A stretch of DNA of 64,000 nucleotides, taken from positions 992,001 through 1,056,000 of the forward strand of contig CBDEUS010000001.1 of assembly GCA_965243395.1 (NCBI GenBank), in the 5' to 3' direction. This document shows positions 51,620-64,000 of this stretch, one piece after another. Numbering within the stretch: the first letter of the stretch is position 1; every line of letters begins with the position of its first letter. The stretch comes from Gammaproteobacteria bacterium. GTDB lineage: Bacteria > Pseudomonadota > Gammaproteobacteria > UBA4575. The notes beneath the pieces are model-generated. The model was not told the DNA's origin and did not search any database. It was given only the letters and a program-made list of their open reading frames with translations. The position numbers and the translations under genes are program-made.

Positions 51620-52312
51620 TTACTCTAGTATATATGTATAGGCCATCAACTGGCCTGAGCGATCTATCTCAACTGTGATTTCAGGTACATCCGTTAACTC
51701 CTGAATCGTTTGCATGAATAACTCAGATTGCGATGCAGAGACACCATTTACAGATTTAATTACGTCCCCATTATGCAGGCCTAATGACGCCGCTTTTGTG
51801 TCAGGCTTAATCTTGGATAAGGTATAGCCAACCACTTGCTGCTCTTCTATGAGTGGCAGAAAGCCTATTTCAGAAACCAAGCGTTGTTTCTCGCTAACAT
51901 AGTCAGCCACTTCATTTTTCGAAAGCACTACTGTTGCTTTTTGTGTTAAAGATTCTTCATAGTCTGCCTGTAACAATAGATCTCCCACACTGCTTCGAAG
52001 CTGCAAATCATAGTCGCTACCCTTACAACGAAGTTTTGCAGAATCATGCAAAACATCCATTAGTTCACATCCCTGAATGTCATCACCTAATTGAACTAAT
52101 AGCTCATCGCCATTTTCATCAACAAACATAGCGTGAGCATTTTTTGCATTCAAAAATGTCCCGCTTAACACCCAATTGGGTTGGTCAGCAATTGCAATAG
52201 GTATGTGTAAAACAAATATGACTAGCATTAAATATGCTAGCCATATGGTTTTACGTAGGATAGAAATCAATTGGATAATTGAAATTGAACGGTGGAACAT
52301 CTTCTGCTCCAA
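51620..52312 (-). CDS. GspC-like protein (HR domain + PDZ); start uncertain
   Basis: Hydrophobic N-segment; W.L.GT....A....GD.I.G..L..V (HR-like); GY......GL..GDVI.SVNG...I.R.GQ (PDZ). Confidence 0.7.
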   Translation of the reverse strand: MEQKMFHRSISIIQLISILRKTIWLAYLMLVIFVLHIPIAIADQPNWVLSGTFLNAKNAHAMFVDENGDELLVQLGDDIQGCELMDVLHDSAKLRCKGSDYDLQLRSSVGDLLLQADYEESLTQKATVVLSKNEVADYVSEKQRLVSEIGFLPLIEEQQVVGYTLSKIKPDTKAASLGLHNGDVIKSVNGVSASQSELFMQTIQELTDVPEITVEIDRSGQLMAYTYILE

Positions 52313-53234
52313 AGTTAATTAGTTTCACGCGTTGTAGAATTTTATTTTCGAGTTGTGCGTTACCTAATTGACTAGAAATAATACTTGCACTTGTCACTTT
52401 ACCTGAAGGAGCAATTGTTATATTCAGTACCACTTTTCCTTGTAAAGAAGCATCTTTGCGTAATTCACGGTTATACAAGGTAAATAATCCACTCTTGTTG
52501 CGATCAAACATGATTTGAATTTTTTCTAAATCACGTGTCTTACCATATCCGGCTCCATCACCCGAACCAGAACCATCACCACCACCAGAGCCAGTACCAC
52601 TTCCACCAATTCCAGAACCCCCTACGGAACCCGCAGCACGACCACCCAGCCCATTGCCGCCAGTGCTTGTGCTTAAACTCGCAGTGTTAATACCGCCACT
52701 AGATTTTCCGTAATTTTTAGTGACTAAAGATCGTTTGGTTGTCTGTCCAGTTGTTCCACTTGTATTAAGAGAACGTTCACCTAACGCTGCCGAGGAAGAA
52801 GTTTTCTTAATATCAGATAGATCATCCTTCATGGCTAACAACCCCGAACTCGCGGCTATTTCTTTTGCCGACTTTTTAGGTATAGGTGCTTTTTTAGGTT
52901 TTGTAGCCGTTTTAATAGGTTCTTTTTTAGGTTGCGGCTTAGGCTTGACCTTTTTTGGTTTAGGTTTAGGTTTCACCTTTCTCTCAACCGGCACTACTTT
53001 AGGTGGTGGCGGTGGAGGAACTTCAACTTTAGGAATAAGTTTAACCAGGCGTTCTGGTTCTTGTTTTTCAGGCTCTTCAGGTTCTGGTAGCGGCAAGATT
53101 GCAAATAAAAATACTAAGAAAAATACTGCAACAACGGACCAACGTAATAATTTATTAAAACGAGCCTGTTGCTCTGGATTAATCGTCCAGGGCAAGTCAT
53201 GCGGGAAATATGAATTTTGAATTACAGCAGCCAT
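52251..53234 (-). CDS. TonB-like protein with AgmX/PglI-type C-terminal domain (GltG-like)
   Basis: Single TM, Pro/Lys linker, Gly/Ser linker, LYNRELRKDASLQGKVV..ITI.PSG.V. Confidence 0.85.
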   Translation of the reverse strand: MAAVIQNSYFPHDLPWTINPEQQARFNKLLRWSVVAVFFLVFLFAILPLPEPEEPEKQEPERLVKLIPKVEVPPPPPPKVVPVERKVKPKPKPKKVKPKPQPKKEPIKTATKPKKAPIPKKSAKEIAASSGLLAMKDDLSDIKKTSSSAALGERSLNTSGTTGQTTKRSLVTKNYGKSSGGINTASLSTSTGGNGLGGRAAGSVGGSGIGGSGTGSGGGDGSGSGDGAGYGKTRDLEKIQIMFDRNKSGLFTLYNRELRKDASLQGKVVLNITIAPSGKVTSASIISSQLGNAQLENKILQRVKLINFGAEDVPPFNFNYPIDFYPT

Positions 53235-53241
53235 ATTAGTA

Positions 53242-53742
53242 TTAAGACTCTAATTGAGTTTCTTTTTGTATTACCGATAAAGAAATTTTTGAAAAACCTG
53301 CATAGTTAGCACATAAACGCATTACACGATCCAGTACTTTATATGGCACTTCTTTATCGCCCATTATTGTTACTTCTCTTTCCGGATCTTCTTCTGAGAC
53401 AGGCTCCACCTCATCCGCCAATTGTTTTAATTTTTCAACAAATAGCGAAACTTCAGTAGAGTCTTCCTTCATTACTTCTTCGATTGTAATGACATCTTCA
53501 CCTTGAAGCCTTACCGTCTCTTTACTCAGCATTACTACTACAGATTCCTGAGGTGTAACTTCAGAAATTGATTCAGGCATTTCAATGCCTTTTGGATTAG
53601 GCAGTGGAGTAATCTCGTTTGTGTTCACCAATAAGAAAAACACCAATATTGTGAAAATATCCATCAATGAGACAACATTAAATGGAGGTTGCTTATTGCG
53701 ACTATGTTGTCGTTCCATGCGTTTTAGTCTGCGATCATTCAC
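53242..53742 (-). CDS. ExbD/TolR family protein (AglS-like), TM Asp present
   Basis: NVVSLMDIFTILVFFLL; I.GDKEVPY..L..VM. Confidence 0.9.
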   Translation of the reverse strand: MNDRRLKRMERQHSRNKQPPFNVVSLMDIFTILVFFLLVNTNEITPLPNPKGIEMPESISEVTPQESVVVMLSKETVRLQGEDVITIEEVMKEDSTEVSLFVEKLKQLADEVEPVSEEDPEREVTIMGDKEVPYKVLDRVMRLCANYAGFSKISLSVIQKETQLES

Positions 53743-53775
53743 TATTATTTTCCTATTTAGTTCCTTAAATATCCC

Positions 53776-54276
53776 TTAGGCAGGAGCATCACCTAATGAT
53801 ATTTCGGGAAATAATTCAGCACGTGTGAAATTACCCTGCTCATCCTCAATATCAATCGCTCTTACTGCGTCCATAACCAATACTAAACTCTCATAACCTA
53901 TATCAGGTTCAAGTAGAATTGATGCGGCTACGTTGTCAGGAAATTTACTTTTAAGAGATTGCAAAGTTTGTGAAAGTAATTCAACATCATAACTTTCATC
54001 TTTCTTCTCAATCATATATCTGCGAAAACTTCCGTTCTTATCTTGAACAATTAAATAATCTTCTTTAACGATAACTTCTAAAACCAATTCTCTTTTATTT
54101 GGTTTAACTTCATTGGATGCAGCAGGTAAATGTATTTCTAAAATTGTAATCTTAGCGAAAACCAGCATGATCAGTAGAAACGGAACCAAGATCACCATCA
54201 AATTCATGAATGGCGTTACACTTAGCTCTGCTTCATTTTTTGCGAAGCGTTTTTTCCAACGTTTTCTGTTACGCAT
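53776..54276 (-). CDS. ExbD/TolR family protein (AglQ-like), TM Asn
   Basis: LSVTPFMNLMVILVPFLL; Y..LV.VMD.VR; LFP.ISL. Confidence 0.88.
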   Translation of the reverse strand: MRNRKRWKKRFAKNEAELSVTPFMNLMVILVPFLLIMLVFAKITILEIHLPAASNEVKPNKRELVLEVIVKEDYLIVQDKNGSFRRYMIEKKDESYDVELLSQTLQSLKSKFPDNVAASILLEPDIGYESLVLVMDAVRAIDIEDEQGNFTRAELFPEISLGDAPA

Positions 54277-54305
54277 ACCTGGTTCCTTTAAGTCGATGCA
54301 ATTGC

Positions 54306-62560: not shown

Positions 62561-62562
62561 AT

Positions 62563-62829
62563 TTAATTACAACCACACCCACCACCATGCGAATAGCCAG
62601 CACCACGTGCACCTTCACGTGTGTTAAATACATGCTGTCTATATTTGTTAGATAAAGGATCTTTATTAAAACTCATAATGGGGTCTGCCAAATATTCGCG
62701 CTCATAAGGTGCGACCCAAGGCTCTAATTCAGGCAAACTTGGTAAACGAAATGATGAACAAGCACTTAAAGTAATAAGAACTACAGAAATAAATAAAAAC
62801 TGCGCAACTTTTTTAGAAATAATCAACAT
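62563..62829 (-). CDS. DUF4266 lipoprotein
   Basis: Lipobox LSAC, V.PYER..LADP.M, RE.A.G...GGGCGCN. Confidence 0.9.
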   Translation of the reverse strand: MLIISKKVAQFLFISVVLITLSACSSFRLPSLPELEPWVAPYEREYLADPIMSFNKDPLSNKYRQHVFNTREGARGAGYSHGGGCGCN

Positions 62830-62832
62830 GAC

Positions 62833-63342
62833 TTATTCCTTTCTTAAGGCTTGAATTTGGCGGTGATAGCGTTCGATATAGCCTTTCTTATATCCTTTAT
62901 TTACATGACGAATTTTTCCTGAGCGATCAATGATGATCGTGGTTGGCATGGCTTTGATATCAAAACTTCTGCTGACGTTTTTGTCTTCATCAAATAAGAC
63001 AGGAAAATTAACTTTTAATTTTTTTGCTAAATACATTGCTTTAGACTGATCTTCGTCAATATTGATGCCTAGTAATTCAAAGTCATACGGGTCTAAAGAT
63101 TCATGCAATTCATTTAGACGGGGAATTTCTTCTGTACATGGACCACACCATGTAGCCCAAAAATTTAGCATTACAATACGTCCTTTTAATTCACTTAAAC
63201 GTATATTCTTTCCGGAAGCACTTTTTAGTGTGAAATCTGGCGCTGTATCAACTTTAATCTTGGCAAATGAGATTACGCTTGCAGCACTAACTACAAGTAA
63301 TAAAGTTAAGATCCCTATAACTAATATATATTTTTTACTCAT
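62833..63342 (-). CDS. TlpA-family periplasmic thiol-disulfide reductase
   Basis: N-terminal anchor, APDFTL, NFWATWCGPC, MPTT. Confidence 0.93.
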   Translation of the reverse strand: MSKKYILVIGILTLLLVVSAASVISFAKIKVDTAPDFTLKSASGKNIRLSELKGRIVMLNFWATWCGPCTEEIPRLNELHESLDPYDFELLGINIDEDQSKAMYLAKKLKVNFPVLFDEDKNVSRSFDIKAMPTTIIIDRSGKIRHVNKGYKKGYIERYHRQIQALRKE

Positions 63343-63362
63343 GATGTTACTTTTCTGAATAA

Positions 63363-64000
63363 TTAGAAGAACACACCTACGTTGGCTGTAATTTCAAAAT
63401 TATTTGTAAATTCGTTATCGCCTAATAAATCAGTTTCATAGACAATGTCACGTACATCAAAACGAAATGACAACCAATCTGTTGGCAAGACCTTCAAGCC
63501 AAAACCAACGTTGTAGGCAAACTCATCTTCGTCATTAAATTCCACATTGCCTACTCCAAACATCAGGTAAAAGCTACTGGTCATTGCTATATCGCTGCCA
63601 AGAAATACTTCTCCAGGAAAGATGTTGTAACCGATTGAAACGTTGTAGTAGGTGATGTCTTCATCTTGTAAAATATTGAAAGTGGTTAAGTTTTCTAAAG
63701 TTTCATCTGAAGACTCAGACATTCCAATTGAGCCTTCTATAAAAAAGTCTTCTGTAACATGGTAGGCTGCACGTAATCCATACGCGGGCTCTGTTCCAAA
63801 GTCTTCTACATCCAATACTCCGTAATAGGCCGTAATTTCAAAATTTTCAGTGTCAATACGTGGTACAACGATATCTCTTCGGTAAATATCGGGTTCAATT
63901 ACCTGTTCCTGGCTAGACTCAGGTTCGGGTGCTTCCTCGTCTGCATTCACCGGTTGCAAAAGAAATATAATTAATAAAATAAAAAGTAATTTAGTTTTCA
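63363..64000 (-). CDS. Outer-membrane beta-barrel (GltA/B/H-like); first base of the start codon lies just outside the window
   Basis: The frame continues upstream of the tracked start as (M)KTKLLFILLIIFLLQPVNA, a signal peptide; alternating beta-strands; C-terminal VFF. Confidence 0.8.
   Translation of the reverse strand, partial: KTKLLFILLIIFLLQPVNADEEAPEPESSQEQVIEPDIYRRDIVVPRIDTENFEITAYYGVLDVEDFGTEPAYGLRAAYHVTEDFFIEGSIGMSESSDETLENLTTFNILQDEDITYYNVSIGYNIFPGEVFLGSDIAMTSSFYLMFGVGNVEFNDEDEFAYNVGFGLKVLPTDWLSFRFDVRDIVYETDLLGDNEFTNNFEITANVGVFF

Follow-up and report, generated by a model that had tools for sequence, protein, structure and literature searches.

The 64,000-nucleotide stretch of DNA analysed here, referred to throughout as the window (contig CBDEUS010000001.1 of the Gammaproteobacteria bacterium assembly GCA_965243395.1, positions 992,001 to 1,056,000; G000:C1:992001-1056000 in our coordinates), ends in a minus-strand operon in which genes for a motor resembling that of the Glt/Nfs systems stand beside genes for thiol, flavin and haem proteins of the outer membrane. 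Within the window the operon comprises 14 open reading frames, running from 63998 down to 51620 and separated, in that order, by 20, 3, 2, 58, 7, -19, -38, 5, 67, 29, 33, 7 and -62 nt; no gap exceeds 67 nt, and neighbouring genes overlap at three of the 13 junctions. An earlier note, made from the sequence of the window alone, had described a packed minus-strand operon with exactly these genes in this order. Its count of 14 is right for the window and too low for the operon: five further genes on the same strand lie upstream, in the 6.6 kb just beyond the window end (L003), and the region is therefore the distal 14 genes of a 19-gene operon. The note had also suggested looking past 64000 for apbE, further barrels and a large secreted substrate, and an ApbE, a barrel with an SH3 domain and a lipoprotein of 978 residues are what that stretch encodes. 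The operon falls into two blocks, whose conservation is described below for 19 mapped systems, namely that of the window and 18 fetched loci.

The redox (R) block consists, in order, of a haem lipoprotein, an SH3-barrel and a further barrel (the second of the OMP_myx_plus type, the first probably so), TlpA, DUF4266 and DUF3570. The haem lipoprotein (978 aa; L003, operon strand) resembles hydrazine synthase alpha, combining PD40 propeller repeats, a PF18582 middle domain (70.6 bits) and three CXXCH motifs. Its phmmer match to 5c2v_A (E 8e-11) covers residues 531-597, around the first haem site, and its score of 76 bits against the hydrazine synthase alpha equivalog NF052339 is set against a cut-off of 800. 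Two or three CXXCH motifs are present in all 18 propeller proteins compared, with three here and two in most relatives. The SH3-barrel (264 aa; L003, same strand) carries an N-terminal bacterial SH3 domain and reaches 48.8 bits with TIGR04565, below the cut-off of 60. The second barrel, probably of GltA/B type (63363..64000, minus strand), scores 145.3 bits with the same model, to which GltA and GltB presumably both belong, and 37.1 bits with PF13505; it ends in ...VFF and was found in all 19 mapped systems. Its gene is cut by the window end, with the ATG one base outside, and the full reading frame (L003 363-1001) encodes 212 residues.

Next in the block is a TlpA/ResA-like, membrane-anchored periplasmic thiol-disulfide oxidoreductase (62833..63342, minus strand), which matches AhpC-TSA (114.6 bits) and Redoxin (102.7 bits) rather than PF13899, and reaches 120.7 bits with the ResA model, under its cut-off of 170. 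It has WCGPC at residues 65-69, and the CxxC motif is kept in all 20 sequences compared. The DUF4266 lipoprotein that follows (62563..62829, minus strand; lipobox LSAC; PF14086, 77.7 bits) ends in GGGCGCN, identical in 19 of 19 sequences. The last protein of the block is an outer-membrane barrel of the DUF3570 family (61424..62560, minus strand; PF12094, 133.2 bits over profile positions 113-414 only; C-terminal end ...SSWF), a family described in the available text of PMC8238504 as a substrate of flavinylation by ApbE. Its SGAS motif (residues 77-80) and a second site, AGAS (85-88), lie in the loop between strands 3 and 4, and a [ST]-[SG]-A-S site is present in 18 of the 19 linked DUF3570 sequences. 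ApbE itself, a flavin transferase scoring 285.8 bits, is encoded on the same strand at L003 5557-6573, with a 250-nt gap between its gene and that of the haem lipoprotein. The same genome carries a second, stand-alone TlpA-DUF4266-DUF3570-ApbE module outside the window (G000:C2:475677-478648, L020), whose full-profile DUF3570 is 30% identical to that of the operon. With its partial profile match, its degenerate second site and a change from Gly to Ser in most members, the operon protein belongs to a divergent subfamily, and the genome keeps both the canonical and the motor-linked form. The single DsbD gene of the genome is on the other contig (C2:623405-624061), unlinked to the operon.

The motor (M) block begins with a 182-residue protein and continues with three tetratricopeptide repeat (TPR) proteins, a small protein, ExbB, two ExbD proteins and an AgmX-type TonB. 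The 182-residue secreted protein (60817..61365, minus strand) has no match in Pfam or NCBIfam. Its AlphaFold2 model (predicted local distance difference test, pLDDT, 84.8) is a long helix at residues 24-64 followed by an eight-stranded beta-sandwich, which fits the "secreted coiled-coil protein" of the earlier note, and a Foldseek search with it returned generic beta-sandwiches only, at template-modelling (TM) scores of at most 0.39. Its gene is the first of the M block in all mapped loci; it was found in 17 of the 19, the fetched stretch being incomplete for the other two. The TPR proteins are a periplasmic protein of 656 residues with a Lys/Glu-rich helical C-terminal half (58839..60809, minus strand; TPR families), in the position of GltC; a 938-residue lipoprotein (56041..58857, minus strand; lipobox LVSC; TPR_6, 79.5 bits), in that of GltD; and a 221-residue lipoprotein (55413..56078, minus strand; lipobox LSSC), in that of GltE. 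The last of these matches the GltE model NF033758 at E 1.8e-10 (40.4 bits, cut-off 225), and profile searches of the operon's TPR proteins with NCBIfam and Pfam gave no match to a GltC or GltD model. A secreted protein of 94 residues (55123..55407, minus strand) occupies the GltF position and is kept there in 18 of 19 mapped systems. The earlier note had called it GltF-like, which its position bears out and its sequence does not, no Pfam or NCBIfam family being matched. Orthology of these four proteins to GltC, GltD, GltE and GltF is thus shown by domain content and position only, and they are best described as candidates.

The proton channel subunit is of the ExbB/TolQ/AglR type (54306..55055, minus strand; PF01618, 97.3 bits) and falls under all equivalog cut-offs. 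The two ExbD/TolR-type subunits (a, 53776..54276, PF02472 51.4 bits; b, 53242..53742, PF02472 59.9 bits; both minus strand) do not match one another at E 1e-3, and they differ at the transmembrane Asp site: subunit a has Asn, as do 16 of its 19 orthologues, and subunit b keeps the Asp, as do all 19. By analogy, this asymmetry fits the AglR5-AglQ-AglS heteromer that is proposed for Myxococcus in the available text of PMC11761067. The TonB-like transducer (52251..53234, minus strand) has a short cytoplasmic N terminus of about 30 residues, one transmembrane helix, a Pro/Lys-rich and then Gly/Ser-rich linker, and a C-terminal domain that passes the cut-off of the AgmX/PglI tail model NF033768 (60.5 bits, cut-off 40) and scores 23.4 bits with TonB_C. 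It has no FHA or other cytoplasmic domain and therefore no visible link to a cytoplasmic platform.

Comparison with family models separates this motor from the familiar ones. The operon ExbB scores 59.1 bits with the tolQ model (cut-off 221) and 43 bits with that of exbB (cut-off 206.2); the ExbDs score at most 35.8 bits with tolR (cut-off 127.3) and at most 22.9 bits with the ExbD models (cut-offs of at least 123); and the TonB-like protein reaches 26.7 bits with GltG (cut-off 650) and 30.6 bits with GltJ (cut-off 450). Five MotA/ExbB genes, including that of the operon, are present in the genome, and the best TolQ-like match is elsewhere (C2:1281693, 220.6 bits). Paralogues of the operon ExbB in its own genome are weak, the best at 71 bits, and the two ExbDs and the TonB-like protein have none there at E 1e-3, whereas orthologues in other families of the class are matched at E 1e-67 to 1e-102. 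The operon ExbB therefore appears to represent a distinct orthologous group. Neither a TonB-dependent receptor nor TolA, TolB or Pal was recognised in the locus by family searches of the operon proteins; the nearest thing to TolB is a weak PD40/TolB-propeller match in the 978-residue protein (25.8 bits, cut-off 343). The one score that points towards Tol is that of the 938-residue TPR protein, which passes the cut-off of a YbgF-type TPR model (96.8 against 90.1 bits) when a 119-position model is summed over five TPR stretches; its BamD-like score is 72.7 bits. In these respects the earlier note, which had excluded a TonB-dependent receptor and TolB/Pal from the locus and for which clustering of the proteins with canonical TonB-ExbBD or Tol-Pal would have been a refutation, is upheld.

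Structure prediction links two proteins of the R block directly. DUF3570 is modelled by AlphaFold2 as a 16-stranded barrel (pLDDT 83.2, predicted TM score 0.79) with Ser80 in a nine-residue loop between strands 3 and 4, and Foldseek found for it generic outer-membrane barrels only (FadL, OmpG, CymA, PelB, AlgE and PgaA; TM scores of at most 0.5). The long loops of the model fall at alternate positions and the N terminus of such barrels is usually periplasmic; from the strand list, the Ser80 loop would therefore face outwards. One pair, DUF3570 with DUF4266, was modelled as a complex and gave an interface score (ipSAE) of 0.80 against 0.00 for the best of three controls; 2 of 110 mismatched pairs and 58 of 80 solved complexes reach that mark. 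At least 59% of contacts are shared between runs, with a partner pLDDT of at least 57. In the model, residues 43-78 of DUF4266 contact every second residue of strands all round the barrel and so lie in its lumen. The result supports binding of the two proteins, and DUF4266 is predicted to sit as a plug inside DUF3570.

The association of the two blocks extends well beyond this genome. Two markers, DUF3570 and the AgmX-type tail, were scored in an even sample of the class, the former in 401 genomes and the latter in 400 (G271 being unscored). Three unpublished genomes are included in the tallies, all with a tail under the cut-off (G063, G165 and G331) and one of them, G063, positive for DUF3570; no mapped locus derives from them. 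DUF3570 is present in 90 of the 401 genomes and a tail over the cut-off in 73 of the 400; 60 of those 73 also have DUF3570, compared with 30 of the 327 without the tail. Both markers are on one contig in 24 genomes and lie within 27 kb of each other in 23 of them, the remaining pair being 510 kb apart in a complete genome. A second survey, of a species-level genome collection scanned with an alignment of the GltD-like protein alone, revealed at least 589 relatives, from which 80 loci were kept. Where at least 9 kb of upstream sequence was available (51 loci), a redox gene was found in 46, R-block or haem-cassette genes in 37, and none in 5. The carriers include Steroidobacteraceae, Woeseiaceae, Acidiferrobacteraceae, Thiohalobacter, Thiogranum, Candidatus Thiodiazotropha, Chromatiaceae and Burkholderiales, among them sulfur-oxidising symbionts and two cultured strains, Aquabacterium sp. 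A7-Y (L109), whose blocks are fused as in the window, and Peristeroidobacter agariperforans KA5-B (L066). The co-occurrence across genomes that the earlier note had proposed to examine is thus borne out by both surveys.

Among the 19 mapped systems, the six shared R-block genes stand in the same order in 18, again with the haem lipoprotein first in 18, and the ExbB-ExbD-ExbD-TonB set with a GltD-like gene is present in every one. The two blocks are fused on one strand in nine systems, including that of the window, and are divergent or 5-18 kb apart in the other ten. ApbE, found in 14, varies in its place within the locus, and the Glt-type OMP_myx_plus barrels are inside the redox block, not next to the motor genes. 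Where the blocks are split, the sequence separating them often holds a haem cassette, which encodes a mono-haem protein of about 400 residues, a laminin-G-like (LamG_3) lipoprotein of about 850 residues whose copies in other genomes have two CXXCH motifs, and a protein of about 550 residues that carries a twin-arginine signal and matches no family. Of 11 inter-block gaps inspected, 8 have the cassette between or next to the blocks, as do many of the 80 further loci. In the present genome the cassette is 190 kb before the operon (G000:C1:851410-856403; L122 5410-10403). A sequence search of solved structures with the twin-arginine-signal and mono-haem proteins of the cassette returned nothing useful. 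The redox chemistry associated with the motor, described as thiol/flavin in the earlier note, thus also involves haem proteins.

Several known systems help to place this locus. The closest to the M block is the Agl-Glt system of Myxococcus xanthus, with its spore-coat assembly paralogue Agl-Nfs. Both combine a single TolQ-like subunit with two dissimilar TolR-like ones and a TonB-like transducer ending in an AgmX/PglI tail; both have a large and a small TPR lipoprotein, a further TPR protein and a small protein after the GltE-like gene; and in both the outer-membrane platform comprises a small lipoprotein together with one that bears a propeller. Small barrels, probably of the OMP_myx_plus family in each case, are a further likely parallel. 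In the available text of PMC11761067 and PMC9946355, the Glt platform is made up of barrels, a lipoprotein and the propeller-bearing lipoprotein CglB. Unlike Agl-Glt, the 19-gene operon, which was searched in place of the whole genome, encodes no GltH, GltI, GltJ, GltK, cytoplasmic platform or adhesin; its TonB-like protein is without an FHA or other cytoplasmic domain; one of its ExbD paralogues is without the transmembrane Asp; and it adds a thioredoxin, a CXC lipoprotein, a barrel of a flavinylated family, ApbE and haem proteins. The system is not a gliding motor. It resembles the core complex of gltC, D, E and G with aglRQS and an extra gene, which is described in the available text of Luciano 2011 (PMC3169522) as one cluster of unknown function in non-gliding gammaproteobacteria. 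The gene set appears to be the same, and the 182-residue protein may be that "additional gene". That text makes no mention of barrels or redox genes beside the core and confines gltA, gltB and gltF to Myxococcales and Bdellovibrionales, whereas here redox genes and OMP_myx_plus barrels are both linked to the core.

The R block has its counterpart in the ApbE-DUF3570-thioredoxin-DUF4266 module of Méheust 2021, which, according to the available text of PMC8238504, is thought to be fed by DsbD and has its DUF3570 flavinylated by ApbE. All four proteins are found here, together with the CXC tail, the CxxC thioredoxin and the [S/T]GA[S/T] site in DUF3570, and the unlinked DsbD recalls the 316 DsbD-less clusters described in the same text. 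Unlike the published module, that of the operon comes together with Glt-type barrels, haem lipoproteins and a motor, features that go unmentioned in the main text of that paper. The words ExbB, ExbD, MotA and tetratricopeptide are absent from the main text of PMC8238504, and neither its available text nor that of the myxosortase preprint mentions Glt or a motor. Among the papers listed by the literature searches, none was found that joins a Glt-like core to the DUF3570 module, although the supplements of PMC3169522 (Figure S1, Tables S2-S3) and PMC8238504 (file 1), which lay outside this comparison, may show such neighbours. The haem lipoprotein shares with hydrazine synthase alpha (5C2V chain A) the order of its parts, namely a propeller, a middle domain ending in the first CXXCH, and one or more C-terminal haem domains. 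It differs in being a lipoprotein, in having no beta or gamma subunit genes in its locus and in scoring far under the equivalog cut-off. More than 600 homologues of hydrazine synthase alpha are counted in the available text of PMC12758564, none with a known function.

Insertion of one protein into an outer-membrane barrel is a feature of both MtrCAB-type porin-cytochrome conduits and the plugged barrels of the LptDE type. The operon may work like these, in that redox centres carried by a protein inserted in a barrel would bridge the outer membrane and lead to a lipoprotein cytochrome. The parallel is an analogy, no homology having been found; the barrel has 16 strands, a disulfide/dithiol pair and one flavin mononucleotide (FMN) would stand in place of a deca-haem chain, and a motor driven by the proton-motive force is attached.

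What appears to be new is that two orphan systems, each already in print, are parts of one conserved locus. We give an even chance to the reading that they form a single envelope-spanning system, in which a proton motor of the Glt/Nfs type is coupled to an outer-membrane platform containing thiol, flavin and haem centres. In such a system, reducing equivalents would come into the periplasm by way of DsbD, whose gene is unlinked, and be handed to TlpA, which would pass them to the CGC tail of DUF4266, the plug in the DUF3570 barrel. From there they could move to the FMN attached by ApbE to Ser80 of DUF3570, and an exchange of electrons between the flavin and the haem groups of the propeller lipoprotein would follow at the outer membrane. 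The motor, acting through the TonB-like protein and the TPR scaffold, would engage the barrels and so gate, assemble or position the platform, by analogy with GltABHK-CglB in Myxococcus. The earlier note had proposed a machine, driven by the proton-motive force and coupled to thiol/flavin redox chemistry, that assembles, exports or moves a surface substrate; the composition and conserved linkage of the locus support the coupling, and such a function is something that we still infer. A more specific version, in which DUF3570 and its threaded DUF4266 are a new trans-outer-membrane electron conduit, leading from dithiol to flavin to a surface haem lipoprotein with no multihaem wire, and gated or moved by the Glt-like motor, is rather doubtful.

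A number of observations weigh against the coupled system. The sequence of electron carriers, the way the electrons flow and the nature of the substrate are conjectural. Both the FMN serine (Ser80) and the CGC tail are outside the confidently placed contacts of the complex model, and since ApbE acts on the periplasmic side, a loop bearing FMN and facing outwards would need to be modified before the barrel folds. The site itself reads S/T-S-A-S in 14 of the 19 linked DUF3570 sequences, not the published [S/T]GA[S/T]; one of the 19 has lost the motif, and the second published site is degenerate. As for linkage, the 18 fetched loci were selected because both markers lay close, which is a biased choice, and related genomes are not independent samples in the counts, so that a Fisher test on them overstates significance. 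DUF3570 is missing from 13 of the 73 genomes with an AgmX tail, and these, the five loci of 51 with no nearby redox gene and the 510-kb separation indicate that the motor block can stand apart. Finally, about every second mapped locus has its two blocks in separate transcription units. The linkage of redox and motor genes on which the earlier note had staked its proposal holds in other genomes, though often between separate and divergent units.

Three other explanations deserve more than a sentence. The first, which we consider improbable, concerns biogenesis or display: the motor, TPR proteins and barrels would insert, expose or shield the haem lipoprotein, in the manner of Glt-CglB or Slam, and TlpA, DUF4266, DUF3570 and ApbE would serve its maturation and not form an electron path. 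The parallel with GltABHK-CglB, in which barrels accompany a small lipoprotein and a beta-propeller lipoprotein, speaks for it, as do the best match of TlpA, which is to ResA, a cytochrome-c maturation reductase, the first place of the haem lipoprotein in nearly every R block and the GspC-like paralogue in this lineage. However, the TlpA-DUF4266-DUF3570-ApbE set also occurs with neither cytochrome nor motor, both in the stand-alone module of this genome and in the 316 + 227 clusters described in the available text of PMC8238504, so that its role is not tied to this cytochrome, and CglB is not exported through the Glt barrels in Myxococcus according to the available text of PMC9946355.

Energised import is unlikely too, and we rank it after display. 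Here the TonB-like motor would open one of the barrels, DUF3570 or those of Glt type, for uptake of a substrate that is oxidised or bears a metal, which the thiol, flavin and haem proteins would then reduce in the periplasm, making the system an analogue of TonB-dependent transporters without a classical receptor. A TonB_C-type C-terminal domain with an ExbB/ExbD stator would suit such a role; the plugged DUF3570 of the model loosely resembles a plug-in-barrel transporter, and 25 DUF3570 clusters with the iron transporter VIT1 are reported in the available text of PMC8238504. Yet no TonB-dependent receptor, inner-membrane permease or ABC transporter turned up in the 19 loci, which were mapped with the operon's own families only. 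The plug, moreover, is a separate lipoprotein with redox cysteines, and in the Myxococcus structural models presented in the available text of PMC11761067 the partner of the AgmX-type tail is GltD, a TPR protein, and not the plug of a barrel.

It is very unlikely that the two blocks are independent neighbours, a Glt-like core of unrelated function beside a stand-alone DUF3570 redox module, because their linkage is conserved. The frequency of separate and often divergent units, the occurrence of either block without the other in some genomes and the mobility of ApbE within the locus are what such an arrangement would look like. Against this, 23 of the 24 same-contig pairs are no more than 27 kb apart, across many families of the class and in three architectures (fused, divergent and spaced); redox genes are present in 46 of the 51 loci picked by a motor marker alone; the OMP_myx_plus barrels are embedded in the redox block; and in many loci the motor block is read in the same direction as the haem cassette and a second thioredoxin gene. 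Last, an identity as a machine for gliding motility or as canonical TonB-ExbBD or Tol-Pal, to which the family-level MotA_ExbB, ExbD and TonB_C domains, the summed YbgF score of the 938-residue protein and the Glt-type tail and barrels might point, is largely refuted and barely credible, since all motor equivalog models (GltG and GltJ included) are far under their cut-offs, the best TolQ-like match is elsewhere in the genome, the receptor, TolA, TolB and Pal are not in the locus, the YbgF model has 119 positions and the protein 938 residues, FHA and other cytoplasmic domains are missing from the TonB-like protein, and the core alone does not drive motility, as is argued in the available text of Luciano 2011 (PMC3169522).

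The conduit version, if correct, would supply a first function for both the gammaproteobacterial Glt core complex and the DUF3570 flavinylation module. The Glt-like core of non-gliding proteobacteria has been an orphan since 2011 and the ApbE-DUF3570-DUF4266 module since 2021, and with the coupled system the two would acquire a shared and testable role, linking a mechanical, proton-driven machine to redox chemistry at the outer membrane. It would also suggest how the ancestor of the gliding motor may have worked, that is, by operating a platform of outer-membrane proteins. Were the lipoprotein-in-barrel arrangement with a flavin on an outward-facing loop also to prove correct, it would constitute a new way of moving electrons across the outer membrane.

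Some motor blocks with no nearby redox block (L071, L089, L104, L059, L085 and L100) have a conserved giant protein downstream of the TonB-like gene. It ranges from 592 (in L100) to 1865 residues, and a Pfam scan, made for the L089 copy alone, gave no match; the protein may represent a different output or cargo for the same motor. The conserved genes upstream of the R-less loci proved by Pfam to be housekeeping genes (pcnB, folK, panBC and pgi); they therefore reflect synteny and are not part of the system. In L119, a motor block is carried by a 5.7-kb contig labelled Candidatus Methylomirabilis sp., a bin from another phylum, which would reflect either horizontal transfer or a binning error.

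The operon is flanked upstream by divergent molybdenum-cofactor genes (moeA and moaE; L003 6695-8423) and downstream by a fadE-type acyl-CoA dehydrogenase gene (window 48941-51400), and no regulator gene adjoins it. Scans of the locus for promoters and terminators found neither class of site above shuffles (15 terminator-like sites against 11.5 expected) and are therefore uninformative on transcription units. Two gaps stand out, the 250 nt before the haem lipoprotein gene and the 67 nt before exbB. The latter, between the gene for the 94-residue protein and exbB, contains a stem-loop followed by a T-run (55091..55108, minus strand; L021 7108-7091), a possible internal attenuator, though a weak candidate, its class not being enriched over shuffles.

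Two genes of the operon are peculiar to the variant found in the window, as is the third haem motif of the propeller protein. One encodes a 174-residue lipoprotein with a single CX4CH motif (L003, same strand as the operon), found in 4 of the 19 mapped systems. The other, at the distal end of the operon, encodes a membrane-anchored PDZ protein (51620..52312, minus strand; PDZ, 23.7 bits). The earlier note had called it GspC-like; it is a PDZ protein that does resemble GspC, but it stays under the cut-offs of both GspC models (55.8 against 101.6 bits with TIGR01713, and 67.7 against 150 with the second) and is lineage-specific, being present in 3 of the 19 mapped systems and 2 of the 80 further loci. 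The true GspC of the genome (122.2 bits) adjoins a secretin at C1:934512-937311, 107 kb away, and the operon protein is its paralogue. There are four secretin-family matches in the 2.58-Mb genome.

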